From assembly GCA_022828085.1 (NCBI GenBank), contig JAJEIY010000036.1:151783-215782 (forward strand): a stretch of DNA of 64,000 bases. Direction: 5' to 3'. Below, in pieces: positions 5,843-49,343 of the stretch; position 1 is the stretch's first letter; every line of letters begins with the position of its first letter. The notes beneath the pieces were generated by a model, which worked only from the letters and a program-made list of their open reading frames with translations, made no database searches and was not told where the DNA came from. Both the position numbers and the translations under genes were made by a program. This DNA is from Acidobacteriota bacterium. GTDB taxonomy: Bacteria > Acidobacteriota > Vicinamibacteria > Marinacidobacterales > Marinacidobacteraceae.

Positions 5843-5862
5843 GCGGCCGTTCGACCGGGTTC

Positions 5863-5900
5863 GCCGTGGCCGCACGGCCCCGAGTATCGGTATATTGGAA
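5863..5900 (+). terminator. candidate intrinsic terminator downstream of the S9 peptidase gene
   Basis: GCCGTG-GCCG-CACGGC hairpin (5863-5878) followed by a T-containing tract tatcggtatattgg. Confidence 0.3.
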
Positions 5901-5975
5901 ACCGTGCCGCGTGGCGCGACTGGCGATCGCGGAGGCTGAAACCAGGTCTCGCGGGACGTGACGGAGGGGGTTCGC

Positions 5976-7523: not shown

Positions 7524-7674
7524 CCGGGGCAGCGGCCCGGAGCGGCGGCGGTCTTCAGGGGGAGTCGCGGTCCGGGGGCCGGCGCCCCGCCCATGCGAGC
7601 CCCCCGGGCCGGGAGGGGCGGCGGCGCAGTACGATCCCGCCGCGGCGCGGCCGCCGCGACCAGAGGAGGATCCG

Positions 7675-9063
7675 GTGACGGAGTCGAAGATCAGAATCGA
7701 ACGAGACACCCTCGGGGAGGTGACCGTTCCGGCGGAGCGGCTCTACGGGGCGCAGACCGAGCGCTCCCGGCAGAACTTCCGGATATCCGGCGAGCGGATG
7801 CCCCGGGAAATCGTCTCCGCGCTGGCGCTCGTCAAGAAGGCGGCCGCGCTGGTGAACCGGGACCTCGGCCGGATCTCGGAAGACAAGGCGGACGCCATCG
7901 CGGCGGCGGCCGACGAGGTGCTCGCCGGGGGGCATCCGGACGAGTTCCCCCTCCTCGTCTGGCAGACGGGCAGCGGCACCCAGTCCAACATGAACATGAA
8001 CGAGGTGCTGGCGAACCGGGCGAGCGAGATCCTCGGCGGATCCCGCGGCGAGGGGCGGCTCATCCACCCGAACGACGACGTCAACCGCGGCCAGTCCTCG
8101 AACGACGTGTTCCCCACCGCGATGCACGTAGCGGCGGTGCTGGCGCTCGAGGAGCGGGTCCTCCCCGCGGTGCGCGGGCTGGCGGCGGCGCTCGCCGAAA
8201 GGGCGGAGGCCTTCCACTCGGTGGTGAAGATCGGCCGCACCCATCTCCAGGACGCCACCCCGCTCACCCTCGGCCAGGAGTTCTCGGGCTACGCCGCCCA
8301 ACTGGACCACGGCGCCGCCCGGATCGAAGCTTCGCTACCGCACCTCCGGGAGCTGGCGCTCGGGGGCACCGCGGTGGGGACGGGCCTGAACGCCCACCCC
8401 GAGATGGGGGCGCGGGCCGCGACCTGGCTGACCCGGCTCACCGGCTGCCAGTTCGTGACCGCCCCCAACAAGTTCGAGGCGCTCGCCTCGAAGGACGCCC
8501 TGGTCGCGGGCCACGGCGCGCTGAAGACGGTGGCGGTGTCGCTCCACAAGATCGCGAACGACATCCGCTGGCTGGCCTCCGGCCCGCGCTCCGGGATCGG
8601 GGAGATCCGGATCCCGGCGAATGAACCCGGGAGTTCCATCATGCCGGGCAAGGTAAATCCGACCCAGTCCGAGGCGCTCCTCATGGCGACCGCCCAGGTT
8701 CTCGGGAACGACGTCGCCATCGGGGTCGGTGGGGCGGGGGGTAACTTCGAGTTGAACGTGATGAAGCCGCTGATCGCCCACAATTTCCTCGGAAGCGCGC
8801 GGCTCGTCGCGGACGGCTGCGACAGCTTCCGGGAACGCTGCGTGGTCGGCATCGAGCCGAACGAGGGACGCCTCCGCGAGAACCTGGAGCGCTCGCTCAT
8901 GCTCGTCACCGCGCTGAACCCGCACATCGGGTACGACAACGCGGCGAAGATCGCCAAGAAGGCCTATGCCGACGGGACCTCGCTCCGGGAAGCGGCGCTC
9001 GCGCTGGGCCTGCTCACCGCGGAGCAGTTCGACGCGTGGGTCCGGCCCGACGCGATGGTCTGA
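7675..9063 (+). CDS. fumC: fumarate hydratase class II
   Basis: Full-length match to class II fumarase/aspartase family (GSSxMPxKxN signature [26 protein letters not shown]). GTG start at 7675 preceded by AGGAGGA. The upstream part of the track ORF (7327-7674) is spurious. Confidence 0.93.
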
Positions 9064-9186: not shown

Positions 9187-10158
9187 TCACCTGCTGCTGC
9201 GGACCGCCTCCGTGACGAGCGGAATGACCTCCAGCGCGTCGCCGACGATGCCCACGTCGGCCGCGCCGAAGATGGGGGCGTCGGGGTCCTTGTTGATGGC
9301 CACCACGAAGCGGGAGCCGCGCATGCCCACGAGGTGCTGGATGGCGCCGGAGATGGCGCAGGCGACGTAGAGCTTCGGCGACACGGTGGCGCCGCTCGAG
9401 CCGATCTGGAGCTCGTGGGGAAGCCAGCCGGCGTCGGTCACCGCCCGGGAAGCCCCGACCACGCCGCCGAGCGCCGCCGCCAGTTCGCGCACGATGTCGA
9501 GGTTCTCGGGACCGCCGAGGCCGCGGCCGGCCGCCACCACCACGTCCGCCGCCGTCAGGTCCACCCCGCCGGCAGCCGAGTCCCGGATCTCGACGAGGCG
9601 GGAACGCAGGTCGTCCGGGCCCACGGGGGAGGGGAGGATGCGCACCGAGAGCGCCGGCCCCGGTTCCCGGGCCGGAAAGGCCCCGCGTTCCACCGTGACC
9701 ACCGCGGGAAGGCCGGGCGCCGCCACCTCCTGGACGAACTTGCCGAGAAAGGCGGAGCGCCTCGCAACGAGCCCGTCCTCGCGCCAGGAAAGCGCCGACA
9801 CGGCAGTGGCGGCGGCGGTCGAAAGCCGCGCCGCGACCAGCGGCGCCACGTCCCAGCCGACCGGGTCGTGGGGGAGGAGGACGCACTCGGCGCCGCTGGC
9901 CTCCCGGGCGTGCAGCACGGCGGCCGCGAAACCGTCCGCGGTCGGGGCCGCGAGCGCCGGCCCCTCCACCAGCAGGAGTTCTCCCGCCGACAGGACTTCG
10001 CGCAGCCCTTCGGCCTCGCTGGCGTCACCGACCGGAAGGACGGCGCTCACCCCGTCCGGCCCGCCGGCGAGTCGGGAGGCGGCCTCGAGCAGTTCGTAGC
10101 TGGCGTCCGTGATGCCGTTTTCGCTCCGCTCGGCGAGGATCAGGACCCGGCGGCTCAT
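9187..10158 (-). CDS. etfA: electron transfer flavoprotein alpha subunit
   Basis: [10 protein letters not shown]...; C-terminal FAD-binding domain motifs ([19 protein letters not shown]). ATG at 10158 overlaps the etfB stop (ATGA). The track's 510-aa ORF has a spurious N-terminal extension. Confidence 0.9.
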
Positions 10159-10934
10159 GGTGCGTCTCCGGGAAAGGAGATTCCGGCGCCGGTCCGCATC
10201 CGGGGTACGAGCGCCGCCGCCGCCTCCTGGGGTGAACCCGGGAGGATCTCGGCGCTCGCGCCCCGCTCGGGCCTGCCGAGCGTCAGCCGGCGGAGCTCGC
10301 CGCCGTCCGCGGGAGCGGCGAGCTCCACGCGTTCCACCGGCTTGCGCCGCGAGGCCATGATGCCGCGGAGACTCGCGTAGCGCGGGGTATTGATGCCCGT
10401 CTGGACGGCCACCACCGCCGGCAGGCGCAGTTCCACGACGGCGATCCGGCCGCCTTCGAGTTCGCGGTGTACTTCGAGGCGCCCGTCCCGGAAATGCAGT
10501 CCGGTGGCGGCGGAAGCGAACGAGTAGCGGAGCAGGCCCGCCACCAGTCCCCCCACCTGCCCGTGGCCGCTGTCCTCGGCGAGGAGGCCGGCGGTCACCA
10601 CCCCGGCGTCGAGCCCGGATACGGCATCGGCGAGCGCCCGCGCCACGAAGAAGGGATCGGCGAGATGGGCGCGATCGGTGATCAGATGGACCCCGCGGTC
10701 CACTCCCATCGCCAGGCAACTGCGCAGCACCTGGCCGGCGTCGGCCGGGCCGGCGGTCACCGCCACGGTCTCCGCCGCGTGTCCCGCCTCCTTCAGCGCC
10801 AGCGCCGCCTCGACGGCGTAGCGGTCGTAGTCGTTGATGCCGTACCCGAGGCTGGATTCGTCGATCCAGTCGCCCGCCGGGCGAAAGGCGGAGTTCCGGT
10901 CGGGGACCTGCTTCACCAGCGCAACGGCATTCAT
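10155..10934 (-). CDS. etfB: electron transfer flavoprotein beta subunit
   Basis: MNAVALVKQVPD... typical EtfB N-terminus; 259 aa. Confidence 0.9.
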   Translation of the reverse strand: MNAVALVKQVPDRNSAFRPAGDWIDESSLGYGINDYDRYAVEAALALKEAGHAAETVAVTAGPADAGQVLRSCLAMGVDRGVHLITDRAHLADPFFVARALADAVSGLDAGVVTAGLLAEDSGHGQVGGLVAGLLRYSFASAATGLHFRDGRLEVHRELEGGRIAVVELRLPAVVAVQTGINTPRYASLRGIMASRRKPVERVELAAPADGGELRRLTLGRPERGASAEILPGSPQEAAAALVPRMRTGAGISFPGDAP

Positions 10935-10943
10935 TTGAAATCG

Positions 10944-11570
10944 ATGCGTATGATCGCCGCGCTAGCGTCCGGGGGCAAGGTGAGCGGCAAAGTACCGAGA
11001 GGGGCCTTCGTGGTGGGGGGAATCCTTGCGCTCGCGACCGCGCTCGGTCTGCTCGCGGTCGCCGGGAAACCGACCGCGGTCCGGCGGCCGGACCCGGTGG
11101 ACCGGCCGGTACTGCTGATCCCGGACTTCGACAACCGCACCGGCCGCGGGGAGTTTGCCCCCCTCGCGCAAGAACTCACCGAGGCAGTGCGGGCGCGCCT
11201 CGGGGAGGATCCGGACGGCATCTTCGAACTGTCGCCGCGGCGGCTCCGTCCTGCGTTCGGGCCGCGGGAGCGCGAGGAGGGGCTTGTCGGCATCGCCGGC
11301 CGGCTGGGCGCCGACTACGTCCTGGCGGGAAGCCTGGAGTCGGGGCCGGGCGGGGACCTGGCCCCCGGGTCCTCCTGGGAACCTCCGTCCGGCGCCGGCG
11401 AGGGTGACGCCCGAATCCGGCTGGACGTCCTCCTGGTGCGGGATTCCGACCCGCCGTACGTGTTCGCGGAGCGGTTCCCGCTGGGCATTCCAGACGCGGG
11501 CGGCGCCGAGGGGAACGAACTTGCGGATTGGGTTGCGGAGCGCATCGCGCTCTCGCTGATCCGGCCCTGA
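10944..11570 (+). CDS. hypothetical membrane-anchored periplasmic protein (one N-terminal TM; TolB-N/LpoB-like pattern)
   Basis: MRMIAALASGG...; a single TM (FVVGGILALATALGLLAV) then a soluble domain (VLLIPDFDNRTG...LGADYVLAGSLE). This is the 3' part of track ORF 10467-11570, whose 5' part is antisense to etfB. Confidence 0.5.
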   Translation: MRMIAALASGGKVSGKVPRGAFVVGGILALATALGLLAVAGKPTAVRRPDPVDRPVLLIPDFDNRTGRGEFAPLAQELTEAVRARLGEDPDGIFELSPRRLRPAFGPREREEGLVGIAGRLGADYVLAGSLESGPGGDLAPGSSWEPPSGAGEGDARIRLDVLLVRDSDPPYVFAERFPLGIPDAGGAEGNELADWVAERIALSLIRP

Positions 11571-11620
11571 GGTCGCTCCGGCACCGGCAGTGCGGTCCGA
11601 AAACCGCGCGGCCGCCGGGC

Positions 11621-12034
11621 TCAGCCCGTGTGGATCACGAGCGGAACGCCGGTGAGCCCCAGGTGACGATCCGTGGACCAACACCGCTGGATCTTGCGAT
11701 CGGCCATTACCTGAAGCCCTACCGCGTCCGCGAGCGTCAGGTCCTGATCCCGCAACCGGCGAAGTACGGCGCCGCCGTTCTCGATCTCGGCAGCGCCCAC
11801 CGAAAGGATCTGGAGAGGCTCCATCGTGTCGACCATGGCAAGGAATTGCAGCGCTCTGGTGCGGTCGTAGCGGCGTAGGAGCCAGCCGTGGCCTTCTGCG
11901 ACCACGAGGCTCGACGTCAGGAGTCGGGGCGGGCTGGCGAACAGACGGCGGAAGAGGGGATGCCACGTATCGGAGCGGTCGACGAACGCGATGAAGGCCG
12001 ACGTATCCACATAGGCGTCAGCGCCGGCGGCCAT
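11621..12034 (-). CDS. vapC: PIN-domain ribonuclease toxin VapC
   Basis: 137 aa. VDTSAFIAFVDRSD is the N-terminal acidic PIN motif, with further conserved D/E residues downstream. Overlaps the upstream antitoxin gene by 17 nt. Confidence 0.8.
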   Translation of the reverse strand: MAAGADAYVDTSAFIAFVDRSDTWHPLFRRLFASPPRLLTSSLVVAEGHGWLLRRYDRTRALQFLAMVDTMEPLQILSVGAAEIENGGAVLRRLRDQDLTLADAVGLQVMADRKIQRCWSTDRHLGLTGVPLVIHTG

Positions 12035-12242
12035 ATACGACCTCGTCGATCTGCGAGCTCGAATGAGGATCGCCGGTCTCGACCATGCCGGCGTAGCGCA
12101 TCCACGGCTTCGATTCGTCGCTCGGGACGACCGCGCGCAACGATCGTCGCAGCAGCTCGGCCAGGGAAATCCCGAGCTGCGCCGCTTCGCGTTTGGCGGC
12201 TCGGTACTCCGCGTCCGAAAGGCTGATCTGCGTCCGAATCAT
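12018..12242 (-). CDS. vapB: type II antitoxin VapB-like (small DNA-binding protein)
   Basis: 74 aa, MIRTQISLSDAEYRAAKREAAQLGISLAELLRRSL... Small and basic, immediately upstream of and overlapping vapC. Confidence 0.65.
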   Translation of the reverse strand: MIRTQISLSDAEYRAAKREAAQLGISLAELLRRSLRAVVPSDESKPWMRYAGMVETGDPHSSSQIDEVVYGRRR

Positions 12243-12402
12243 GATGGCAGTCTACAACAGAGTGTTATCATCTCCGGTCAGCGGCGATCCGGTCCGTCAT
12301 CGGCCCGAATGGGGCCGGGGGCGGCCGCCACCGTGCCTGGCCGGCCGCGGTCCTGTCTTCTTGCCGATGTCTTCGGTGAGCGCGCTACCGCGCCCGGGCC
12401 GC

Positions 12403-13662
12403 CTACCGCAGCCGGATGGCGTCCCAGGCGTCCCAGGCGGAGGTGTCCGAGAGGATGATCTCGTCGCCCTCGGCGAGCCCGGCCAGCACCTCGATGCGGT
12501 TCACGGAGCCCCGGCCAAGTTCGACCGGCACCCGCTCCGCGGTCTCGCCGTCGGGCGCGATCCGGAAGAGGCCGACGGTGCTCCCCGGCTGGCCATACGC
12601 CGGCCGGCCGACGTGGAGCGTGTCCGGGATCCGGTCGAGTTCGATCGTGCCGTCCACCGAGAGATCCGGCCGGGCGCCGCGGGGCAGCTCGCCGGCGATC
12701 CGGATGTCCACGGCCACCGTTCCCTCGCGCACCGCGGGGTCCACGCGGGAGACGACGCCTTCCACGACCCCGTTCCGGGTGTCCACGAGCGCCGGCTGGC
12801 CGGGTTCGACGTCGCGCGCCTGCGTTTCGGCGATTCGCAGCACCGCCTTGAGTTCGCGCGGATCCGCCACCCGCGCGAGGTTCGCTCCGGGACTCACCTC
12901 CTGGCCGACCTCGACCGGCACTTCCAGGAGGGTCCCGGCGCGTCCGGCCCGGACCGTGAGGGCGGCGAGCTGCCGCCGGCGGAGTTCCAGGACCGCCCGG
13001 TAACGCGCGACGGTCGCTTCCTTGGAGGCGACCTGCGCTTCGCTCGAATCGGCCAGGATGGAGAGGCGCTCTTCCTCGAGGGCATGGCGGGTCTCCAGTT
13101 CCTCGGCGCTCACCTGGCTGCGCCGGTGGATCAGCTCCCCCACCAACCCGGCCTCGAAGAGCTTCCGGTCGGCATCGGCGCGGCGGCGCGCCTGGGACGA
13201 GGAAGCGGCGAGCTGGCCGGCCGCGTTCCGCTGCTCCAGCAGGTCGGAACGCGTCTGGTCGAGCAGGCGCCGGAGTTCCGCCTCCTCGGCGCGGAGCTGG
13301 AGTTCGGCCTCCCGGGTCTGCTGTTCGAGTTCGGGATTCGAGAGGACCAGCAGCACGGTGTCCTCCTCCACCGGGGTCCCGGGGAGCACGCGGCGTTCCT
13401 CGACCCGGCCGCGGGTCTCGGCGGCCAGCCAGCGGATCTGTTCGGGCGGGACCTGGAGGCTGCCCGGTCCCCGGACCTGCCGGACCAGCTCGCCGCGCTC
13501 GACCACGCCCGTCCAGACGACCGAGCGGTCCACTTCGGGCGCGCCGGGAGCGATGCTGCCGAGCAGCAGAAACACCGCCAGCAGCGCGGCGGCGCCGCCG
13601 CCAGCCAGAATCAGGCGCCGGACGCGGCGTTTCCGCTGCCGGTCGGCGATCTGGAAGTCCAC
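12403..13662 (-). CDS. HlyD/EmrA-family membrane fusion protein (periplasmic adaptor subunit)
   Basis: About 419 aa. N-terminal TM (LILAGGGAAALLAVFLLLGSIA), a very long coiled-coil hairpin (NPELEQQTREAELQLRAEEAELRRLL...), then barrel-sandwich and beta-barrel regions. Probable GTG start at 13662, 20 nt downstream of the dctQM stop. It is the 3' portion of a spurious 990-aa ORF. Confidence 0.8.
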   Translation of the reverse strand: MDFQIADRQRKRRVRRLILAGGGAAALLAVFLLLGSIAPGAPEVDRSVVWTGVVERGELVRQVRGPGSLQVPPEQIRWLAAETRGRVEERRVLPGTPVEEDTVLLVLSNPELEQQTREAELQLRAEEAELRRLLDQTRSDLLEQRNAAGQLAASSSQARRRADADRKLFEAGLVGELIHRRSQVSAEELETRHALEEERLSILADSSEAQVASKEATVARYRAVLELRRRQLAALTVRAGRAGTLLEVPVEVGQEVSPGANLARVADPRELKAVLRIAETQARDVEPGQPALVDTRNGVVEGVVSRVDPAVREGTVAVDIRIAGELPRGARPDLSVDGTIELDRIPDTLHVGRPAYGQPGSTVGLFRIAPDGETAERVPVELGRGSVNRIEVLAGLAEGDEIILSDTSAWDAWDAIRLR

Positions 13663-13682
13663 TCCGCCTCCGCCGTCTTCCC

Positions 13683-15569
13683 CTAGTCGAAGAAGAGTCC
13701 CGGCAGCGCCAGGGTCAGGTACGGGATGTAGGTCACGAGCAGCACCGCGCCCGCCCGGATCAGCAGGAACGGCACCGACGCGCGATAGACCTCGCCGAGC
13801 GGCCGCTTGAACCGGTAGGAGGCGAGGAACAGGTTCATGCCCACCGGCGGGGTCAGGTAGCCGAGCTCGAGGTTCGTGAGGAAGATGACTCCGAGGTGCA
13901 GGGGATCGATGCCGAAGGCGAGTCCGAGCGGCGCGACCAGGGGCACCACGACCACGATGGCCGAGTAGATGTCCATCAGGCAGCCGACGATCAGCAGGAA
14001 GATGTTCAGCAGCAACAGGAAGAAGAGCGGGGAGGCCACGAACGACTGCACCCAGTCGATCGCCATCCCCGGGATGTCGGCGAAGATCAGGTAGTTCGTG
14101 AGCCCGAGGGCGGCGCCGAGGATGAGCAGCACGCCGCCGATCAGGGTCACCGCGTTGGCCCCGGTGCGGACCAGGTCCGAGAACGTCTTCCCCTCGCGGT
14201 GGATCACGAACTCGATGAACAGGGCGTAGAGGACGGTGATCGCGGCGGCCTCCACGAGCGTCGCGATGCCGCCGAGCATCACGCCGATGACCACGAAGGG
14301 GATGGACGCCTCCCACTTCGCGGTCCACAGCGCCCGCGCCGCTTCCCCGATCCGGAACGACGAGGTACCTCCCGTGAAGCGTTGGCCCGCGAAGCGCCGG
14401 GTCACCAGGATGGTGAACCCGGCCACCAGCACGATCTGGAGGGCCGAGGGGATCAGTCCGGCCACGAACAGCCGCGGGATGTCCACCTCGGCGACGATCG
14501 CGTAGAGGATGACGGCGACCGAGGGGGGAATGAGGAGGCCGAGCGAGCCCGCCGCGGTCAGGAGCCCGGTCGCGAACCTGGGGCGGTGGCCGTCGGCGAG
14601 CAGCAGGGGGAACATCAGGCCGCCCATCGCCAGGATGGTGACGCCGCTGCCCCCGGTGAAACAGGTGAAGAACGCGGACATCACGATCGCCACCACCGCC
14701 ACCCCGCCCGGCATCCAGCCGAAGACGCCGCGGAAGAGCACCACGAGGCGCTTGGGCGCGCCGCCCTCCGCGAGGATGTAGCCCGCGAGGGTGAAGAGCG
14801 GAATCGTCGGCAGCATGGGCTTCGTGACCATGCTGTAGGCCTCGGCGGGAATCGCCGCGACCGGGTCCCAGTTGCTCCACAGCAGCACCGCGGCAGCGCC
14901 GCCGAGCGCCACGAAGATCGGCGCCCCGAACGCCGCGGCGATCAGGATGAGGGCGAGCAGCGGCCATTCGATGCCGTATCCGGTGAGGTCCCACCCGGTG
15001 AGCCCCTCGTGGAGCAGCAGGGGAACCGCGAGGCCGAGGACCGCGGTCCAGCGGCCCCAGGCGGTCGGGACCCGCCGCCAGAGCCGCCAGGCGATCAGCA
15101 GGAAGCCGACCGGCATGACGGCCACGGCGGCCCAGACCGGGACGCCGAGCGCCAGTTCCCGGCCGCCCTCCCACTCGGCCCGGGTGAGCACCACGCTGGC
15201 GTAGGAGAGCGTGACCGACACCACGACCCCGACCGCGCCCGACAGCGACAGGAGGCGCGGCCTCCAGACCTCGGACACCATGCTCGGGCCGGCGCTCAGC
15301 GAGAGCAGCTCGCCCCGGCGGGACGCCACCGCCGCCCCCAGGAAGGCGACCCAGAGCGTCAGGTGCTGCACCCACATGAACGAGCCCGGGATGCCCGTCG
15401 GATAGACCGGACGGATGAGCGCCTCGGTGATCGGGATCGCCGCCATGAGGACGAGCGCGCCGACGGAGGTCGCGTCCTCGAAGACCGCGAGGCGGCTCCG
15501 GGGCGGAGCGGCTGGCTCCGGGGTCGCGGCGGTCCCGTCCGGGAGGGCCCCTGCGGCGTCCGGACTCAT
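13683..15569 (-). CDS. dctQM: TRAP transporter fused permease (DctQ-DctM fusion, 4TM+12TM)
   Basis: 628 aa, highly hydrophobic. Matches the fused small/large TRAP permease family. Confidence 0.9.
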   Translation of the reverse strand: MSPDAAGALPDGTAATPEPAAPPRSRLAVFEDATSVGALVLMAAIPITEALIRPVYPTGIPGSFMWVQHLTLWVAFLGAAVASRRGELLSLSAGPSMVSEVWRPRLLSLSGAVGVVVSVTLSYASVVLTRAEWEGGRELALGVPVWAAVAVMPVGFLLIAWRLWRRVPTAWGRWTAVLGLAVPLLLHEGLTGWDLTGYGIEWPLLALILIAAAFGAPIFVALGGAAAVLLWSNWDPVAAIPAEAYSMVTKPMLPTIPLFTLAGYILAEGGAPKRLVVLFRGVFGWMPGGVAVVAIVMSAFFTCFTGGSGVTILAMGGLMFPLLLADGHRPRFATGLLTAAGSLGLLIPPSVAVILYAIVAEVDIPRLFVAGLIPSALQIVLVAGFTILVTRRFAGQRFTGGTSSFRIGEAARALWTAKWEASIPFVVIGVMLGGIATLVEAAAITVLYALFIEFVIHREGKTFSDLVRTGANAVTLIGGVLLILGAALGLTNYLIFADIPGMAIDWVQSFVASPLFFLLLLNIFLLIVGCLMDIYSAIVVVVPLVAPLGLAFGIDPLHLGVIFLTNLELGYLTPPVGMNLFLASYRFKRPLGEVYRASVPFLLIRAGAVLLVTYIPYLTLALPGLFFD

Positions 15570-15610
15570 GGTTCCCCGGGGCGGATTGCGCGGGTCAGTC
15601 CGCGGCGGGG

Positions 15611-16636
15611 CTACTCATTGGCGGCCCGGTACTCGTCGCGCAGCCGGATCATGCGGTCGAACACCGGAGGGGAGACGAGCTGCTCCCGGACCAGCGGGAA
15701 GAGCTTCTCCGCGGTCTCCATCCAGGCGCTTTCGAACGCGGAGGAGGCCTCGATCACCTCGAGACCCCGCGACTTCATCGCCGCGAGCGACTTCCGCTCC
15801 TGCTCGCGGTTGGTCTCGCGGAACGATTCCGCCGCCTCGTTGCTCTTGCGGAGCACCACCTCCTGCTGGGACGGGTCGAGCCGTTCCCAACCCTGCTCGT
15901 GCACGATGATGGCGCCCTGCAGCGGCGCCCAGGGGAGGTCGTTCATGAACTTGGCCGAGCGGTAGATCTGGGACCCCTCCGCGAGCACGATCGGCAGCGG
16001 GACGGCCTCGATGAGTCCGGTCTGGAAGCCGCTCACCAGCTCGACCGAACTGATCTGGACCGGGTCGAAGCCCGACCAGCGCAGGAGATCGAGGACCGTC
16101 TGGTCGTTCGAGGCGCCCGCCAGCTTCAGCGCCTGCAGGTCTTCGAGGGTGTTGACGGGGTCGCTCGCGAAGAAGTGGAGCCAGCCCACGTCGGCCCAGG
16201 CGATGACCTGGAACCCGTGCCCGCTCAGCGTTTCGGCGATCGCCGGGTTCATGGCCTCCCGGACGTGGTCCCATTCGGGGTAGTCGCGGAACACCATCGG
16301 GATGGAGAGCGTCCAGGCGCTCGGGTCCAGTTCGGCGAGTCCCACGTTGGAGACCGCGGCCATCTGGACCTGGCCGAGCCGCATCTTGCTGATCATCGCG
16401 GTTTCGTCGCCGGCGGCGCCCCCGGCGATGATGCGGATCCGCACCTCGCCGCCGGTCTCGCGGCCGATCTCGGCGGCCATCTTGTCGAGGATCAGGTGGT
16501 AGGCGGACCCCCGGGGCGCGACGGTCGCGAGGCGCAGGTTGACCCGCGCCTCGGCGGCGGCCGCGGGCAGGACGAGGGCGAGAGCCACGAGCGCGACGCT
16601 CCGGCCAGCCGGAAGGAACTTTCTGACGTTCGGCAT
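15611..16636 (-). CDS. dctP: TRAP transporter substrate-binding protein, DctP family (TatP-like)
   Basis: 341 aa from MPNVRKFLPAGRSVALVALALVLPAAAAEA (signal peptide); DctP-type SBP fold motifs. The upstream part of the track's 496-aa ORF is spurious. Confidence 0.9.
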   Translation of the reverse strand: MPNVRKFLPAGRSVALVALALVLPAAAAEARVNLRLATVAPRGSAYHLILDKMAAEIGRETGGEVRIRIIAGGAAGDETAMISKMRLGQVQMAAVSNVGLAELDPSAWTLSIPMVFRDYPEWDHVREAMNPAIAETLSGHGFQVIAWADVGWLHFFASDPVNTLEDLQALKLAGASNDQTVLDLLRWSGFDPVQISSVELVSGFQTGLIEAVPLPIVLAEGSQIYRSAKFMNDLPWAPLQGAIIVHEQGWERLDPSQQEVVLRKSNEAAESFRETNREQERKSLAAMKSRGLEVIEASSAFESAWMETAEKLFPLVREQLVSPPVFDRMIRLRDEYRAANE

Positions 16637-16656
16637 AAGGGAATTCTCTGCTGTTT

Positions 16657-17598
16657 CTATGGGTTCTGCATGCCGTCGAGGAAATAGTCGTCGACGTTCC
16701 TGAGCAGCCACGCGGCCCGCTCCTGCGCCACCTGGTTCAGGAGACGCGCTCCCGGTTCGCTGTCGATGTCGAAATCGAGCGTCTGCCGCAACAGGGTCTC
16801 GAATTCCTCCCGGTTGCCGCTCGCGACCGATCCCGTCTCGGCCCAGGTGGACCAGAGCACCGGAGCCCGCGCCGGGCCGATCCCGAGCGCGTGCTCGTAG
16901 TACTCGCGTCCCTGGTCGATGGAGCCCCCGATCCGGGACACCTCGTAGATGCTGAGGTAGTCGTAGACCACCCCGTCGTCCACCGTGTCGTCGAGTTCGC
17001 GGGACCGGTTCAGCAGGGCGCCCATCAGGGAGAGGTCCGCGGTGGCCTCGGGATTGTCCGTATCCATCGCGATCCAGGCGCCGAGCGCGGTGCCTGTCCA
17101 CAGCGCCAGGGCGGCGTCGTCGACCTCCAGCTCGGCGGCGGCCGCCTCCGGGTCGCGGCGGAGGCGGGCTTCGATTCCGGGATGGTTCACTTCGAGACCC
17201 CGCATGCCGTAGCCCGTGGCGCGGCGGTAGAGCCGGGCGGCGCGCCGCCGCACGGCCTGCTTCTCCTCGAACTGGGTGAAGTCGAGATCGAAGAGGTCCG
17301 GCTCCACGAAGCCGTAGGCGAAGAGCAGGAAGCCCTTGGTCGCGCTCAACAGCATCTCCCGGTGCTCGGGGCTCGTCTCCAGCATCGTCTCCATGAGCCA
17401 GAGGTTGTTCGCGAGCGGCGCCTTGACGAGGTCGAGGTCATCGTCGGAACGGAGGACGGCCTCGCCCTCGGCGAGCAGTCCCGAAATCGAGTTCACCGCC
17501 ATGTTGGCGACGAGACTGCACCCCGGCAACCACGTCAGCGCGGCGAGAAGGCCGGCAGCCGGACCGAGCCGCATCCTCCCCGCTCCCACGGTCCTCAT
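16657..17598 (-). CDS. tatT: TRAP-transporter-associated TPR lipoprotein (TatT family)
   Basis: 313 aa; lipobox LTWLPGCS; helical TPR-like repeats. Its position immediately upstream of the dctP-dctQM genes matches TPAT (TPR-protein-associated TRAP transporter) organisation. Confidence 0.7.
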   Translation of the reverse strand: MRTVGAGRMRLGPAAGLLAALTWLPGCSLVANMAVNSISGLLAEGEAVLRSDDDLDLVKAPLANNLWLMETMLETSPEHREMLLSATKGFLLFAYGFVEPDLFDLDFTQFEEKQAVRRRAARLYRRATGYGMRGLEVNHPGIEARLRRDPEAAAAELEVDDAALALWTGTALGAWIAMDTDNPEATADLSLMGALLNRSRELDDTVDDGVVYDYLSIYEVSRIGGSIDQGREYYEHALGIGPARAPVLWSTWAETGSVASGNREEFETLLRQTLDFDIDSEPGARLLNQVAQERAAWLLRNVDDYFLDGMQNP

Positions 17599-17680
17599 GA
17601 CGGCGGAAGGTTACTCCGCGGGCGGGTTCCGTCCGGCACGCGGACGCCCGCGCCAGCGAGCGGGTAGCCTTGTTCGCCGC

Positions 17681-41315: not shown

Positions 41316-42077
41316 CTACCACCGGACCCGTATGCCGAAGAGGCCGCCCGACCGGTCCAGCCTGAGGTCGCCGAAGCCGTCGAATCCCTCCGTGTGCCGG
41401 CCCTGGGACCGGACGTAGCGGAACTCGCCGAAGAGATCGAGGCTGCCGGCTTCACGAAACCGCACGACGGCCACGTCGGCGCCCGCGCCGGCGAAGAAAC
41501 CGGGCAGGAACGACGTCTCCTCGAACACGTCGTAGTAGATGTCCGCGGTCTCGAAGTCCACGAAATCGCCGATTTCCGTGTACCGGTAGTAGGCCCCGGC
41601 AAGACCGCCGACCAGGTAGGGGCGCACCCGCGCCGCGCCGCCGAGCAGCCGCAGCCGCAAGCCGAGGCTCAGGTCGGTCACGGCCAGACGCGCCGAGTGT
41701 TCGATCTCTCCTCCGTCGTCGTACACGAGGTCGAGGTAGGACCCATAGGTCTCAGCGTTTCCGTTGTCGATGCCGATCGAGATGTCTACCCGGGGAAGGA
41801 CGGCGAAGTCGAACTCGAAGCCGAAGCTGCCGGTCCGGAAGTCGTCATCGGTGATCCCGAAGTCGAACTCGTTCGCGGCGAAGAGATCGCTCGTCACGTT
41901 CAGCACGCGGAATCCGCCATAGCTCGAAAAGGCGTAGCGGGCCTCGCGCACGCTTCGTTGCGAGGCATCCGGATAGGGCCCCCGGCGCGGGGGTTGCCCG
42001 GACTCCGCTGCCGCCGTGGCGGTGGCCAGGCAGGCCGTTGCCAGCAGGGTCGTCAGGATGTGCCGCGTGCGGGTCAT
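41316..42077 (-). CDS. outer-membrane beta-barrel protein, paralog 2 (tandem duplicate)
   Basis: 253 aa from MTRTRHILTTLLATACLATATAAA; roughly half its residues are identical to paralog 1 over the whole length (e.g. GSYLDLVYDDG.EI.HSA, FTGFFAGAG.D.AV.R); ends ...LFGIRVRW. Confidence 0.65.
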   Translation of the reverse strand: MTRTRHILTTLLATACLATATAAAESGQPPRRGPYPDASQRSVREARYAFSSYGGFRVLNVTSDLFAANEFDFGITDDDFRTGSFGFEFDFAVLPRVDISIGIDNGNAETYGSYLDLVYDDGGEIEHSARLAVTDLSLGLRLRLLGGAARVRPYLVGGLAGAYYRYTEIGDFVDFETADIYYDVFEETSFLPGFFAGAGADVAVVRFREAGSLDLFGEFRYVRSQGRHTEGFDGFGDLRLDRSGGLFGIRVRW

Positions 42078-42268
42078 GGCGAGCTCCTTTCCAGGTGTCG
42101 GGTTGCGCTGGATCACGTTTCCGCAATGCCTGTGCCACGGCCGGCGCGGCTCGCTCGCCGTCAGCGCCGCGGCCGGCCGACCGCTCGCCCGCGGAACGCG
42201 GCCCGTCGGCCCGCGTTATATTCGTTTCCCGATGCTCTAGCGGGACCCGTCCAAGGAGGCCACCGTTC

Positions 42269-43837
<1,569 letters not shown>

Positions 43838-44035
43838 GACTCCCGCGGGACGCGTTTCCTACCGATTTGTAACATTCCGGACGGACCAGGGCCGCTACCC
43901 TCCGCCGGCAGTGTCTGCCGCACTGCCGCTCCGCGCTCAGTCATCCATGACGAAGCGAAATGCCGGTGCGGCGCCTTCCGGTTGCCCCGAGGATTTGCTG
44001 CCTGACCCCGCGCCGGGGACCTGTCGAGGGACGGC

Positions 44036-45205
44036 ATGATGGAACCCGGACGCGAACCCGGCGGGAGCCGGTTTGCCCAGTTGCCGCGCTTCGCGGGACT
44101 GATTCTGCTGTTCGTCCTCTTCCTGGGGGCGATCGACGGCTTGGGGGAGGGATTCAAGGGTCTCGGTTCCGGGCTCCTCGACGGCTTCTTCCAGGCTTCG
44201 GCGAACCCCTTCGTGGGACTCATCATCGGAATCCTGGCCACGACGCTGGTCCAGAGTTCCTCGGTCACCAGTTCGCTCATCGTGGGACTGGTCGCCGCCC
44301 CGGAGTCCCCGCTGCCGTTCGAACACGCCATCCCCATGGTGATGGGCGCCAACATCGGGACGACGGTCACCAACTCGATCGCCGCCCTCGGACACCTCCG
44401 GGACGGGAAGGAACTGCGGCGGGCCTTCGAGGTGGCCACCTGCCACGACATGTTCAACCTGATCGCGGTGGCCATCCTCCTGCCGCTCGAAATCGCCACC
44501 GGGTTCCTGGCGCGCCTCTCCGGCGTGATTGCCGGACAGTTCGGTGGTCTGCTCGGGACCGGCATCGACTACGAGAGTCCCCTCAAGGGCATCATCGAGC
44601 TGGTCCCCATGCCGATCCAGTGGTTCGCCGGCATCGTGACCGGCTCCGGCGAGGCGGCTGCCGCGCTCCTGGCCGTCGTATCGGTGGTGCTGCTGGTGGT
44701 CGCCCTCGGCCTGCTCGTCCGTACCCTGAAGAGCCTCTCCGCGGGCCGGGGCGAGGCTGCCCTCCACCGGGTGCTCGGCCGTCACGCGCTCCTGGCCATG
44801 GGAGCGGGGGCCGTGGTCACCGTGCTCGTCCAGTCCAGCTCGATCACCACGTCGATGCTGGTCCCGCTTGCCGGCGCCGGGCTCCTGCTCCTCGACGACG
44901 CCTTTCCGGTCACCCTCGGGGCGAACGTGGGAACGACGGTCACGGCGTTCCTTGCCGCCCTCGCGGTTTCCGGCGCCAACGCCCACTGGGGATTCCAGTT
45001 GGCGGTCGTCCACCTCCTGTTCAACCTGGTCGGGATCCTGATGGTCTACCCCGTCTCCCGGATCCGGCAGATCCCGCTGGCGGCGGCGCGCCGACTCGCG
45101 GACATCGCGGTGGCGAACCGGAGTCTGGCGATCGGCTACGTGATCGCAGTGTTCTACGGAATCCCGGCGCTGCTCCTGGTGATCAGCCGGGCGCTCGGTT
45201 TCTGA
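44036..45205 (+). CDS. Na+/phosphate cotransporter family protein (NptA/PF02690)
   Basis: 389 aa polytopic; duplicated LVQSSS(V/I)T signature motifs. Confidence 0.85.
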   Translation: MMEPGREPGGSRFAQLPRFAGLILLFVLFLGAIDGLGEGFKGLGSGLLDGFFQASANPFVGLIIGILATTLVQSSSVTSSLIVGLVAAPESPLPFEHAIPMVMGANIGTTVTNSIAALGHLRDGKELRRAFEVATCHDMFNLIAVAILLPLEIATGFLARLSGVIAGQFGGLLGTGIDYESPLKGIIELVPMPIQWFAGIVTGSGEAAAALLAVVSVVLLVVALGLLVRTLKSLSAGRGEAALHRVLGRHALLAMGAGAVVTVLVQSSSITTSMLVPLAGAGLLLLDDAFPVTLGANVGTTVTAFLAALAVSGANAHWGFQLAVVHLLFNLVGILMVYPVSRIRQIPLAAARRLADIAVANRSLAIGYVIAVFYGIPALLLVISRALGF

Positions 45206-45274
45206 GCCGACGGTCCGGCGGGAAGGTAGAGGCGGCGCGGGCAGATCCCCACCCAATCCGGGGTCGTGCCCGGC

Positions 45275-47101
45275 GCCCGTGACCCGAATCACTTCGGCAA
45301 CCGTGGTCTCGCCTTCCAGGAGAAGCCGCACTGCTGCCTGGCGGAGGCTGAGAACTCCCTGGCGGCGCGCGGAGCGGGCGAGGTCCTCCGTCGCGCAACC
45401 CGCCAGGACTTCGGCGGCTGCCCGGGTGTCGATGGGCAGGATCTCGAAGACGGCCCGGCGCCCCTGGTAGCCGGTGTCGCGGCAGCGCGCACAGCCGGCG
45501 CCCCAGCGGACCGGTCGGCCGGCTGCCGCGGAGGCTGAAAGGGTCTCCGCCTCGCCGGCCGAGACCGTGGTCTTGCGACTGCAGCCGCGGCAGATGGTGC
45601 GGACGAGCCGCTGGGCGACGACACCCACCAGTGTCGAGCCGATCAGGAAGCGCGGCACTCCAAGATCGGCAAGCCGCGTGATCGCGCCGGGAGCGTCGTT
45701 GGTGTGGAGCGTGGAGAGGACGAGGTGTCCGGTGAGGGCCGCCTGCACCGCCATTTCGGCCGTTTCGGCATCCCGGATCTCTCCCACCATGAGGATGTCC
45801 GGATCCTGGCGGAGCACGCTGCGAATCGCCGCGGCGAACGAGAAACGGATGCGGGGATTGACCTGTACCTGGCTGAGCGGCGGGAAGACCAGTTCCACCG
45901 GATCCTCGATCGTCACGACGTTCACCTCGGGCGTCGCGATGTGACGAAGCACCGAGTAGAGCGTGGTGGTCTTGCCGCTGCCGGTGGGGCCGGTGACCAG
46001 GACCAGTCCTTCCCGGCGGCTCAGCATCTGGCGGAGCCGCCGCTCCTCGTCCCCGGCCAGCCGGAGCTGTTCGAGCGACGAGACGAGGGCCGCGGGATCG
46101 AACACCCGCAGCACCGCCTTTTCGCCGAACACGGTGGGCAGGGTCGAAACCCGCAGCTCGATCTCCTTTCCCGATTCGATGCGCTTGATGCGACCGTCCT
46201 GGGGACGGCGTTTCTCGGCGATGTCGAGCCCGCTGAGCATCTTGAGGCGGCTGACGACGGCCTGGTACACGATGCGGGGGAAGGTGTGCATGGTCCGCAG
46301 GACGCCGTCCACCCGGAAGCGGACGACGGCGTGGTCCCGCTTGGGTTCGAGGTGGATGTCCGAAGCGCGGTGCTCGAACGCCTGGTGGAGGATGCTGTCG
46401 AGAGCGGCAACCACCGGGCGGGTCGTGGGCTCGAGGTCGCCGGCGGCCTCCGACTCCGAAACGAACTCCTGGTCCCCCGCGGGTGGGTTCGCGCGCTCGC
46501 CGTGGTCGTGGGTCAACTCGGTCTCCGCGGCGCGCAGGGACGTCCGCAGGTTGTAGAGGCTGCCGTTGATCCCTTCGATGTCGGAACGCGTCGCGACCAC
46601 GACCTTCACCCGAACCCCCAGGTATCGCTCGAGGTCCGCGATGGCCCCGCGGTCGAAGGGATTGGCGACCGCCACCGTCAGGGTGTCCGCGTCCCTGGCG
46701 AGGGCGCAGATGGTGTGCCGGCGGGCGAACGGCGCCGGCAGGGCGCCGGTCACTACTTCCGGGTTGAGTTCCAGCGGGTTGATCACCCGGAAGGGGAGTC
46801 CGGCGTCCAGCGCGACTGCCTGCGCGATGTCCTCTTCCGGGAGGATCCCCCCGGCCACTAGGGCGGCCTCGTGCTGCGGCGGAGGCAGCCGCCCGACAGC
46901 CGCGGCGCGGCCGGCCTCGGCGGCGGGGATGCGCCCCTGGCGGCGTAGCAGCGCCAGCAGGCCGGGAATCGGGTTCGGGACGGCGCGCGGAACCCCGGGC
47001 GCCGGGGTCTGCGGGGCGTCCCCGGGGTCGCGATGGACGGGGCCTCCGGCGGCACGGGGGGACACCGCCGCCGGCTCCGGGGCCTCTTCTGGATGCAACA
47101 T
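45275..47101 (-). CDS. GspE/PilB-family type II secretion/type IV pilus assembly ATPase; 3' end undefined because there is no in-frame stop before 43937
   Basis: N-terminal T2SSE_N domain; Walker A GPTGSGKTTTL; Asp and His boxes; tetracysteine CRGC...CARC; C-terminal TTVAEVIRVTG. ATG at 47101 is preceded by GGAGAGG; the track start at 47116 is a TTG. The ORF continues 1.3 kb past the conserved C-terminus, antisense to nptA. Confidence 0.8.
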
Positions 47102-47224
47102 GGAAAACCTCTCCAAGTCCTTAGACGCAGATCGGCCCGAAACTTTCCCGTTCCGGAGCGCAATGTGGAAAAGTCGAAGCGAAGCGCGCCTGCCGGCGGC
47201 GTCCGGAAGGGCCGGGCTCCGGTG

Positions 47225-47230
47225 TAGAAT
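47225..47230 (+). promoter_or_regulatory. possible -10 element (TAGAAT) for tRNA-Val
   Basis: TAGAAT lies 16 nt upstream of the mature tRNA 5' end. No convincing -35. Weak. Confidence 0.2.
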
Positions 47231-47246
47231 CGCGCCCCTCTCGGAC

Positions 47247-47321
47247 AGGCGCGTAGCTCAGGGGGAGAGCGCTACCTTGACGCGGTAGAAGTCGGCGGTT
47301 CAAATCCGCCCGCGCCTACCA
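47247..47321 (+). tRNA. tRNA-Val (anticodon GAC), CCA encoded
   Basis: Manual fold: acceptor AGGCGCG/CGCGCCT, D-arm GCTC-AGGGGGA-GAGC, anticodon arm CTACC-TTGACGC-GGTAG, T-arm GGCGG-TTCAAAT-CCGCC, discriminator A, CCA. Confidence 0.9.
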
Positions 47322-47441
47322 TTCCTCCGTTCGCGGGACCCCGCGGTTTCGAGTACGAGCCCGCCCCGGCTGCCGCACGCCACTGCCGGGCGGCGCCCGC
47401 CGGGTGTTGTGCGGCGCCCCCGGCCGGGATAAAAAGACAGC

Positions 47442-49343
47442 GTGCCTGCTTCCATCCGACTACGCCTTCCTGACGGGGGCGAGGTGCAACTCCCGGCGGG
47501 AGCGCCGCTTTCCGGGGTGGCCCCGGCTGCGGCGGTCGCCGCCACCGTCGACGGGCGGGAGGTGGACCTCGCCCACTGCCCCGACGCGGATGCCGAGGTG
47601 CGGTTCCTGACCCCGAAGGACTCTGACGGGCTCCACGTGTTTCGGCACAGTTCGGCCCACCTGCTGGCCGCCGCCGTCAAGGACCTGTTCCCGGACGCCC
47701 GCTACGGGATCGGCCCCCCGATCGAGGACGGCTTCTTCTACGACTTCCAGGTCGAGGAGCCCTTCACTCCCGAGGATCTCGAGCGCATCGAGGCGCGGAT
47801 GCGCGAGCTCGTGAAGGCGCGGGTGCCCTTCGAGCGCGAGATCCTCGACAAGGACGATGCCCTGCGGATCTTCGAAGATCAGGGCGAACTCCTGAAGGTG
47901 GAGCTGGTCCGCGAGAAGGGGGGCCAGCGGGTTTCCTGCTACCGGGTGGGGAGCTTCTTCGACTTCTGCGAGGGCCCCCACGTGCCGCACACCGGGGTGA
48001 TTCGGGCGCTCAAGGTGCTCTCGAGTTCCAACGCCTACTGGAAGGGGGACGCGCGGGGCATCCCCATGCAGCGGATCTACGCGACGAGCTTTACCGACCG
48101 GAAGGCGATGGCGGCCCATCTCTCCCGTCTCGAGGAGGCGAAGCGGCGCGACCACCGGCGGATCGGCCGCGAGCAGCGGCTCTTCCTGATCCTTCCGGAG
48201 GCCCCGGGGCAGGTGTTCTGGCTGCCCGCGGGGATGGGGGTGGTGAATCGGCTGCTCGATTCCATGCGGGAAAAGCTGGACCGCCGGTCCTACCAGGAAA
48301 TCCGGACTCCCCTGATCCTGAACGAGTCCGTCTGGGCCCGCAGCGGCCATCTCGACCACTACCGGGACAACATGTTCTTCATCGAGTCGGACGAGAACCG
48401 CTTCGGCGTCAAGCCCATGAACTGCCCCGGCGCGGCGCTGGTCTATCGATCCGACATCCGTTCCTACCGGGACCTGCCGCTCCGGCTCTCGGAATTCGGC
48501 CACTGCCACCGGTTCGAGCCCTCGGGCGTTCTCTCCGGGCTGACCCGGGTACGGGCCTTCACCCAGGATGACGCGCACGTCTACTGCCGCCTCGATCAGG
48601 TCAAGGCGGAGGTCCGCGATCTCGTGGACCTGGTGAAGGAGGTCTACGGCGAGTTCGGCTTCGAGGACATCCAGATCGAACTCTCGACCCGTCCCGAAAA
48701 GTCGGTGGGGAGTCCCGAGACCTGGGAACAGGCGGAAACGGCTCTCGCGGAAGCCCTCGCCGAATCCGGAGACAACTGGGTGGTGAATCCCGGAGACGGC
48801 GCGTTCTACGGTCCGAAGATCGACTTCCACGTCCGTGACGCGCTCCGCCGCAGCCACCAGTGCGCGACCATCCAGCTGGACTTTTCGCAGGCGCCGGCCT
48901 TCGATCTGAACTACGCGACGGAAGACGGCGGGCGGGAGCGCCCGGTCGTGATTCACCGGGCGATCCTCGGCTCCGTGGAGCGCTTCTTCGCCCTCCTCCT
49001 CGAGCACACCGGCGGGGCTCTCCCGGTCTGGATCGCTCCGCTACAGGCCGTGTTGATCCCCATCGCCGACCGGCACCAGGCGCACGCGGCGGAAGTGGCT
49101 GCCGCCCTCCGGGAGCGGGGCTTCCGGATCTCGGTCGACGACCGCCGGGAAAAGATGGGCTACAAGATTCGCGAGGCGGAAGTGGGGCGGGTTCCGTTCA
49201 TGGTGGTGCTCGGGGACCGGGAGGTGGAAGAAGGCACCCTCGCCGTGCGTACCCGGGGCCGGCGGGGCCAGGAAACCATGACGGCCGCCGCGCTCGTTGA
49301 ACGTCTCGACGAACTCACGCGAAGCCGGTCGCTCACCCCGTGA
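47442..49343 (+). CDS. thrS: threonine--tRNA ligase
   Basis: 633 aa; TGS domain, second additional domain, class II core motifs and anticodon-binding domain. Aligns along its full length with E. coli ThrS. Confidence 0.95.
   Translation: MPASIRLRLPDGGEVQLPAGAPLSGVAPAAAVAATVDGREVDLAHCPDADAEVRFLTPKDSDGLHVFRHSSAHLLAAAVKDLFPDARYGIGPPIEDGFFYDFQVEEPFTPEDLERIEARMRELVKARVPFEREILDKDDALRIFEDQGELLKVELVREKGGQRVSCYRVGSFFDFCEGPHVPHTGVIRALKVLSSSNAYWKGDARGIPMQRIYATSFTDRKAMAAHLSRLEEAKRRDHRRIGREQRLFLILPEAPGQVFWLPAGMGVVNRLLDSMREKLDRRSYQEIRTPLILNESVWARSGHLDHYRDNMFFIESDENRFGVKPMNCPGAALVYRSDIRSYRDLPLRLSEFGHCHRFEPSGVLSGLTRVRAFTQDDAHVYCRLDQVKAEVRDLVDLVKEVYGEFGFEDIQIELSTRPEKSVGSPETWEQAETALAEALAESGDNWVVNPGDGAFYGPKIDFHVRDALRRSHQCATIQLDFSQAPAFDLNYATEDGGRERPVVIHRAILGSVERFFALLLEHTGGALPVWIAPLQAVLIPIADRHQAHAAEVAAALRERGFRISVDDRREKMGYKIREAEVGRVPFMVVLGDREVEEGTLAVRTRGRRGQETMTAAALVERLDELTRSRSLTP

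Follow-up and report, generated by a model that had tools for sequence, protein, structure and literature searches.

An orphan GspE/PilB-type ATPase gene of Acidobacteriota runs antisense through the whole of nptA in a frame kept open across a deep clade

The genome of an Acidobacteriota bacterium (GenBank assembly GCA_022828085.1, contig JAJEIY010000036.1) contains, within the 64,000 nucleotides (nt) analyzed here (positions 151,783 to 215,782 of the forward strand; hereafter the window), a gene for a secretion ATPase of the GspE/PilB family that has no stop codon after its conserved C-terminus. Instead, the open reading frame (ORF) continues on the minus strand through the complete length of the convergent gene nptA, which encodes a Na/Pi cotransporter family protein. 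Comparison with related loci indicates that this frame is maintained: codons of nptA that would create a stop on the opposite strand are avoided, the length changes in the linker between the two genes are all in frame, and the ORF ends in a conserved heptapeptide that lies outside nptA.

On balance, we incline slightly to the view that the extension is a selected and translated C-terminal tail, overprinted on nptA, which would serve as a disordered tether ending in a functional tip. With rather more doubt than conviction, we also propose that both strands of nptA may have been protein-coding and under selection since before the order- or family-level radiation of the clade, the antisense strand specifying a functional disordered tail with a docking tip that would have been born by overprinting upon deletion of a phoU-like gene and the ATPase stop.

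Anatomy of the extended reading frame

In the ORF listing of the window, the minus-strand ORF at 43937-47116 comprises 1059 amino acids (aa) and begins with TTG. Its reading frame is free of stops from 47260 to 43939. The start of the ATPase is uncertain and may be the TTG at 47116 or an ATG five codons later, as in the database protein P0001. The parts of the ORF and its antisense partner are as follows.

45275..47116, minus strand: ATPase portion (GspE/PilB family) with an MshEN N-domain, a T2SSE domain and a CxxC...CxxC motif; it ends ...TTVAEVIRVTG
45206..45274, minus strand: linker of 69 nt encoding AGHDPGLGGDLPAPPLPSRRTVG, free of overlap with any gene and of stops in all minus frames
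44036..45205, minus strand: antisense part of the ATPase ORF, 390 codons (1170 nt), by its coordinates in frame -1 of nptA
43961..44035, minus strand: variable segment, antisense to the 5' leader of nptA and beyond its start codon, differing in sequence and length by lineage
43940..43960, minus strand: C-terminal heptapeptide F-R-F-V-M-D-D, encoded by TTT CGC TTC GTC ATG GAT GAC
43937..43939, minus strand: stop codon TGA of the 1059-aa ORF, 100 nt past the stop of htrA, which is on the opposite strand
44036..45205, plus strand: nptA, Na/Pi cotransporter family, 389 aa (PF02690; NCBIfam Na_Pi_symport)

The ORF consists of a complete MshEN and T2SSE ATPase followed by 445 extra codons, 390 of which are the codon-aligned antisense, in frame -1, of nptA (389 codons and the stop). 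In this geometry codon position 2 lies opposite position 2 and every codon of the overlapping tail reads as the reverse complement of a single nptA codon, so that stops in the overlapping tail can arise only from TTA, CTA or TCA sense codons in nptA.

The ATPase portion showed a Pfam T2SSE match at aa 233-611 (E=6.5e-121; 403.9 bits against a gathering cut-off of 24.9) that covers profile positions 6-370 of 370, and an MshEN match at aa 106-189 (E=1e-17). The Walker A (GPTGSGKTTTLY), Walker B/Asp (DPDILMVGEIRD) and His (TGHLVLSTLHTND) boxes are intact, and their positions are mostly invariant columns in an alignment of 47 sequences. The top NCBIfam matches, to TfpB, GspE and PilB (577.8, 512.6 and 497 bits), were all under the respective equivalog cut-offs (850, 630 and 676 bits). 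The ATPase is a member of the family, not an assignable orthologue of GspE, PilB or TfpB. Judging from these comparisons it is functional, since its catalytic motifs are invariant and its amino-acid divergence among the clade loci is far below the divergence at 4-fold degenerate sites.

An earlier note, made from the letters of the window, had described the ATPase as an orphan flanked by nptA and tRNA-Val/thrS. This was borne out by a Pfam scan of about 40 ORFs of the window, which detected no platform (GspF/PilC), pilin or secretin gene of a type II secretion or type IV pilus system, and no such gene was found within 6-8 kb on either side in 12 related loci. The note had also correctly observed that no stop follows the conserved C-terminus before 43937, and that homologues end soon after RVTG. 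Outgroup ATPases terminate as RVTSQ*, RVTGRG*, RVTGGR* or RVTSH*, i.e., 2-3 residues past RVT[GS], a point from which the window ATPase runs on for 445 codons. In the other two minus frames the first stops past RVTG are located at 45185 and 45156. About 90 nt are accordingly stop-free in every minus frame, where the note had given about 70 nt.

The D/E/R/H/G-rich tail had furthermore been described as antisense to a clearly genuine nptA, and the gene's assignment is confirmed. The translation matched PF02690 in two stretches (E=2.5e-37; 128.4 bits against a cut-off of 29.1) as well as NCBIfam Na_Pi_symport (129 bits against a cut-off of 50), and it contains two QSSS motifs (LVQSSSVTSS and LVQSSSITTS). 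The G+C content at codon positions 1, 2 and 3 is 0.69, 0.46 and 0.89. Identity of NptA across the clade ranges from 67 to 99%, and some metagenome-assembled genomes (MAGs) at NCBI annotate a Na/Pi cotransporter family protein. The gene is genuine and under purifying selection. The NCBI pipeline annotates both genes, completely overlapped, in some MAGs. The gene calls stored for 12 looked-up loci (L080-L087, L168-L172) contain the long ORF of about 1000 aa and omit nptA in all of them.

Conservation across the clade and avoidance of stop-creating codons

Within the window, an open antisense frame is by itself not unusual. The G+C content is about 70%, and 102 ORFs of at least 250 aa are present in 64 kb. 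The -1 frame is stop-free in 12 of the 34 other genes, and against the window background 1.08 stop-creating codons are expected in 389 codons, with a probability of 0.34 that none occurs (P0). A read-through of 1.3 kb in a single genome is therefore not surprising once the native stop is lost. It was also observed that simple gene picking based on G+C at third codon positions (GC3) fails in this DNA, where -1 shadow frames with high GC1 often outscore the real frame, as do frames in which wobble lies opposite wobble (GC2 higher than GC1).

The comparison with orthologous loci that the earlier note had called for was performed on DNA of 24 loci, collected from GTDB species genomes (L001-L011), by look-ups of exact proteins, several of them on circular long-read contigs of 3-4 Mb, and by an NptA-seeded metagenome scan. 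The ATPase ORF runs through the entire nptA gene in 24 of 24 loci. The lowest identities in the clade are 69% for the ATPase domain and 67% for NptA, and 4-fold sites between the main lineages are saturated (0.44-0.55, equal to control genes). Synteny is largely retained: in 23 of the 24 loci htrA follows past nptA, and most have thrS/tRNA upstream of the ATPase. The clade consists of marine and sponge-associated Acidobacteriota, the records of which are labelled Acidobacteriota or Vicinamibacteria.

A protein search with the whole ORF was evaluated for the best 60 of 8000 scored clusters, which derive from NCBI, ENA, JGI and Logan sources. About 55 of the 60 are proteins of approximately 970-1110 aa with 56-98% identity and 86-100% query coverage, except that the best local alignment of P0052 spans only 54% of the query. 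The exceptions among the 60 include one ORF cut by a contig end and several that are frameshifted in the ATPase or in the overlap; P0059 and P0060 also belong to the frameshifted database versions. The next homologues, with about 56% identity in the ATPase, comprise about 590 aa and end RVTSQ*, RVTGRG* or RVTGGR*.

The codons TTA, CTA and TCA are absent from nptA in 24 of 24 loci (0 of 6824 codons in the first 18). Eight control genes from the same loci contain 1.0-2.2 of these codons per 1000, the membrane protein RodA 1.6. When Leu- and Ser-specific control rates are applied to nine saturated lineages, 7.95 such codons are expected against 0 observed (P=3.5e-4). As an outgroup control, we used 77 nptA homologues with 51-59% identity, none of which is overlapped by an ATPase ORF. 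Outgroup genes with a GC3 of 0.80-0.875 contain on average 2.59 stop-creating codons, with one of 22 having none, and those with a GC3 of 0.875-0.94 contain 0.86, with 5 of 14 having none. A Poisson regression on the outgroups predicts 20 such codons over the nine lineages (P about 1e-9), and empirical GC3 bins predict about 16 (P about 1e-7). Within nptA of the clade, CTA and TCA together account for 0 of 726 codons, while CTT and TCT occur at 5-7%, and codons ending in A do occur in other 4-fold families. The results show that stop codons in the antisense frame are depleted relative to expectation (0 against 8-20), and that codon usage explains the openness of the frame in one genome but not across lineages.

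Linker, tip, tail and probable origin

The linker is 12, 24, 42, 63, 66, 69, 72, 78 or 159 nt long in the 24 loci, nine values that are all multiples of 3. An out-of-frame indel in the linker would end the protein 30-40 codons later and should be harmless if the tail were junk. In the linker and in the terminal segments of this GC-rich DNA, stops are rare in the other two frames as well, and the lack of stops there is thus uninformative by itself. The longest linker, of 159 nt, belongs to the locus at 6001-9183 of L169. In the P0052 lineage, the last residues of the ATPase and the linker are duplicated in tandem and in frame, with EVVRVTGAGKDPGA... appearing twice.

Beyond nptA, the ORF ends 21-141 nt past the equivalent of nptA residue 1. 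Eleven distances were observed, and the motif is always in frame. The heptapeptide, or its short form F[RE]F[DE][DE], forms the end of 51 of the 60 best clusters, with FRFVIED, FRFEMDE, FRFEWEA and FEFED as variants; the P0027/P0058 lineage ends differently. Its variation is of the coding type: across the seven codons in twelve deep lineages, diversity at codon positions 1, 2 and 3 is 0.095, 0.229 and 0.515 (permutation P=0.001). All four CGN codons are used for the Arg residue, D and E are exchanged through third positions, and Phe, Val and Asp are encoded by synonymous codons. The stop is fixed directly after the motif, yet it is TGA, TAG or TAA depending on the lineage. Conservation ends sharply at the stop, and the 21 nt beyond it are unconserved (0.62-0.69).

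Other ends were seen in individual lineages. A lineage associated with Geodia barretti terminates as ...PTPEDWEGG and has no FRF motif, and P0034 reads the DNA of the motif out of frame, as SVSKWT. The clade member L170 is rearranged beyond nptA (9198-14700), the place of htrA being taken by an 870-aa ORF without a Pfam match together with the insertion sequence genes IstB_IS21 and Transposase_mut; this rearrangement has left both the ATPase-nptA overlap and the tip motif intact.

Two other origins of the conserved tip DNA were considered. An ancestral DNA element upstream of nptA was rejected, as 76 outgroup upstream regions matched the motif no better than shuffled sequences. An upstream ORF on the nptA strand (MTKR...) was likewise rejected: its ATG is present in no more than 9 of 16 lineages, and neither its start nor its continuation nor its stop is conserved. 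In the window, a short ORF of 30 aa on the nptA strand (43947-44039, plus strand) begins at an ATG in the reverse complement of the tip (MTKRNAGAAPSG...); nothing in it is conserved past MT[KN]R, and it could be an nptA leader peptide or a chance occurrence. No other protein in the window or in 13 related loci was found to share the C-terminal motif.

Of the 445 residues of the tail, 22% are D or E, 12% R, 14% G and 6% H; 14% are hydrophobic, and the net charge is -40. Searches of Pfam, NCBIfam and PDB sequences returned no match to the tail, and a search against 1.84 billion representatives returned only clade members, fragments and weak matches, the latter being probably miscalled nptA shadows. 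No conserved internal start or promoter-like site of its own was found for the overlapping region; it continues the ATPase ORF, with the linker kept in frame.

Neither an intrinsic terminator nor a sigma-70 promoter was detected in a scan of 43600-47500. Rfam searches of the whole window, including a permissive run on 43700-45400, returned only a tRNA and a sub-threshold hammerhead match. Folding of the 60 nt past the ORF stop for 16 lineages revealed no significant or conserved hairpin (z -1.3 to +1.5). A short sequence, TTGTAACATTCCGG, is located at 43867-43880 (plus strand), 30 nt past the htrA stop. The close relatives keep it, as the reverse complement CCGGAATGTTACAA, as do L084, L087 and, in part, L007, whereas its intergenic surroundings vary. 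A TACCCT/TACGCT-like hexamer lies 24 nt beyond it.

With regard to the origin of the arrangement, the outgroup metagenome contig L100 (61% G+C; stretch 4001-7705) is informative. Here, nptA (4001-5164) is followed by a PhoU-like gene (5180-5890, 236 aa; NCBIfam phoU, E=7.5e-21) and by a convergent ATPase gene of 596 aa ending RVTSH*; 24 nt separate the stops of these last two genes. None of the clade loci has the PhoU-like gene. In another outgroup, L012, the ATPase has a normal stop and no nptA lies downstream. This suggests deletion of the phoU-like gene together with the ATPase stop as the simplest route to the layout of the clade.

The locus is flanked in the window by the following genes.

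42038..43837, plus strand: htrA, HtrA/DegP-like serine protease upstream of nptA, with Pfam Trypsin_2 and two PDZ domains; its true start is probably later than 42038
47247..47321, plus strand: tRNA-Val (GAC), detected by ARAGORN and by Rfam (tRNA, 66.7 bits), divergent from the ATPase
47442-49343, after tRNA-Val: thrS, from the ORF listing

Elsewhere in the window, a cluster for a tripartite ATP-independent periplasmic (TRAP)-type transporter is located at 13686-17610 (minus strand), comprising a fused DctQ-DctM protein (643 aa), a DctP-family solute-binding protein and a TAtT T-component. It adjoins an HlyD-like protein at 12406-13683.

Competing explanations and known systems

In the account that we favor, an orphan ATPase gene of the MshEN/GspE type would have lost its stop in a deep clade, most likely through a deletion that also removed the phoU-like gene. 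The ATPase frame would thereby have come to continue into frame -1 of nptA, its codon-aligned antisense, which high-G+C codon usage leaves almost stop-free, and since the fusion this frame would have been held open by purifying selection. The predicted product of about 1000-1060 aa would consist of the ATPase, a variable Gly/Pro/Ala/Arg linker, about 390 overprinted residues, a variable segment and the tip F-R-F-V-M-D-D-COOH. The overprinted residues are expected to be acidic and disordered, and free in sequence except for what nptA dictates. The long disordered tail may act as a tether or spacer that presents the tip as a docking or regulatory peptide.

Several observations weigh against this account. 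The composition of the tail is what the antisense of a membrane-protein gene gives. AlphaFold2 (AF2) assigned residues 622-1059 a predicted local distance difference test (pLDDT) score below 50 and no secondary structure, although the alignment of 47 sequences behind the model had little depth, and some of the ATPase was modelled poorly as well. No residue-level constraint was detected in the tail interior in deep lineages or in sliding windows, the 4-fold sites of nptA being as variable as those of controls (0.514 against 0.52), and the choice between C and G at the third positions of Leu, Val and other nptA codons resembles that in control genes, indicating no selection on tail composition. 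In close pairs, synonymous divergence of nptA is about 40% below that of the ATPase domain, ThrS and RNaseG, but infC behaves similarly, and recombination could be the cause. The 3-periodicity of the tip would fit equally well a frame on the nptA strand with coinciding wobble, xSS[M/I][T/S][K/N]R. Moreover, P0027/P0058, P0034 and P0044 are without the tip or are frameshifted inside the overlap, and P0028 and P0043 continue for about 20 codons beyond the motif. Finally, under the most conservative null P is only about 3e-4, and how many lineages count as independent is a matter of judgement.

The earlier note had proposed an assembly or sequencing error, or a recent stop-loss mutation, and had considered a genuine 3' extension unlikely; the comparisons support it on none of these points. 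Apart from the oddity itself, only the few frameshifted database versions (P0044, P0059, P0060) speak for an error or a recent strain-specific mutation, whereas the same stop-less architecture is present in 24 independent loci with NptA identities of 67-100%, from short-read as well as closed long-read assemblies including circular chromosomes, and about 55 protein clusters show it too. Between the lineages that carry it, synonymous sites are saturated, and identity is only about 67-70% in NptA and in the ATPase domain. We regard this possibility as practically negligible, and the avoidance of stop-creating codons, the in-frame linker indels and the conserved heptapeptide point to a maintained frame. 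If the extension is old, it could still be a neutral by-product. An old stop-loss would then have exposed a GC-driven shadow ORF, tolerated as junk, or else the mRNA would end early and the product be rescued or degraded, and the persistence of the ORF would follow from codon bias and shared ancestry. The stop-free -1 frames of other window genes, the P0 of 0.34 for nptA and the 102 long ORFs would be in agreement with this, as would a tail without homologues, predicted fold or interior constraint and the frameshifted versions in some assemblies. Frames that are all open over nine or more saturated lineages (P 3.5e-4 to 1e-9 depending on the null) would not be expected, however, given that outgroup nptA genes at equal GC3 average 0.9-2.6 stop-creating codons; nor would nine linker lengths all in frame and a tip outside nptA with coding-type variation. 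We consider a neutral by-product improbable.

Selection could also act on something other than the fused protein. The open frame might be selected for the transit of ribosomes: translation would shield the ATPase transcript from Rho-dependent termination, antisense transcription across the whole nptA unit to its 5' end would couple the expression of the two genes by transcriptional interference or antisense RNA, in the manner of an excludon, and the tip would be promoter or leader DNA or RNA of nptA. This idea, which seems to us unlikely but worth keeping in mind, would account for an ORF that always stops just beyond the nptA start and spans its whole coding region, for the unconstrained tail interior and for the lack of an intrinsic terminator between the genes or after the stop. 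It would also suit the coincidence of the fusion with the loss of a PhoU-like regulator gene beside nptA, and a motif that lies in the nptA upstream region and is clade-specific like the htrA-nptA junction. A promoter or operator would not, however, be predicted to vary with period 3 in the ORF frame or to lose its conservation exactly at the stop, and no promoter-like site or Rfam element was found at the motif. A separate antisense gene with its own start inside nptA, which ends at FRFVMDD and whose frame the ATPase read-through happens to enter, appears very unlikely. The tip does behave like a protein C-terminus, and embedded genes in frame -1 with their own starts have been reported in Pseudomonas aeruginosa (PMC8850804). 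Yet no conserved internal start was seen, stop avoidance spans all 389 nptA codons, and the linker between the ATPase and nptA is in frame in every lineage, which would be needless for an independent downstream gene.

If both strands of nptA have indeed been coding under selection since before the radiation of the clade, we would know of no longer or more anciently conserved antisense dual-coding region from bacteria, and it might functionally link the ATPase to phosphate uptake. The locus provides many independently evolving lineages in which a complete antisense overlap of 1.2 kb is open, in frame and terminated by a conserved peptide. It would illustrate a route to protein novelty in which a deletion fuses a conserved gene to the antisense strand of a convergent neighbor. 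In addition, phosphate-uptake potential and protein lengths may be misreported for the clade, because some gene callers drop nptA.

To our knowledge, the reality of long antisense ORFs as bacterial genes is disputed, and what has been accepted is a small number of young, species-restricted cases. When the literature was searched for stop-loss extensions running over convergent genes, no comparable case came up. GC-rich genomes carry shadow ORFs in frame -1 as non-functional by-products of codon usage. The nptA overlap lies in the same frame and owes its openness to the same cause, the rarity of TTA, CTA and TCA; a shadow ORF, however, would not be expected to remain open through saturated lineages, to hold flanking non-overlapping segments in frame or to finish with a conserved peptide. 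Long antisense transcripts of the excludon type between convergent or divergent genes have been described in Listeria, where they are long untranslated regions. As in an excludon, a transcript from one gene would span its neighbor in antisense and could couple the expression of the two, whereas the ORF described here is kept stop-free and excludon antisense RNAs are untranslated.

With the GspE, PilB and MshE ATPases that carry MshEN, residues 1-614 share the full domain set and the invariant catalytic motifs. Known members, in contrast, end 2-3 residues past RVT[GS], and the window ATPase scores under the equivalog cut-offs and has no partners in 64 kb. A functional analogy may be drawn to the bacterial single-stranded DNA-binding protein (SSB), in which an intrinsically disordered linker joins a folded core to a conserved C-terminal tip of acidic-hydrophobic character. 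Both would combine a folded oligomeric domain, a long and poorly conserved disordered segment of variable length and a short hydrophobic/acidic tip that is conserved. The two are unrelated in sequence, and the tail of about 440 aa is encoded antisense to another gene.

The closest known cases are olg1 and olg2 of P. aeruginosa, long antisense ORFs in frame -1 that overlap their partners by 957 and 1536 nt (Kreitmeier et al., 2022, iScience, PMC8850804). Both are embedded and have a start and a promoter of their own; they are confined to roughly one species and supported by RNA-seq, Ribo-seq and mass spectrometry (PMC8850804). Like them, the ATPase tail lies in frame -1 to its 'mother gene' in a GC-rich bacterium, and the case for it rests partly on the depletion of stop codons against synonymous-codon expectation (PMC8850804). 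In contrast to olg1 and olg2, the tail extends an old conserved ATPase gene at its 3' end, covers the whole of its partner and is common to synonymously saturated lineages, so that its conservation reaches much deeper, and deep comparisons here reveal no reduction in synonymous variation.

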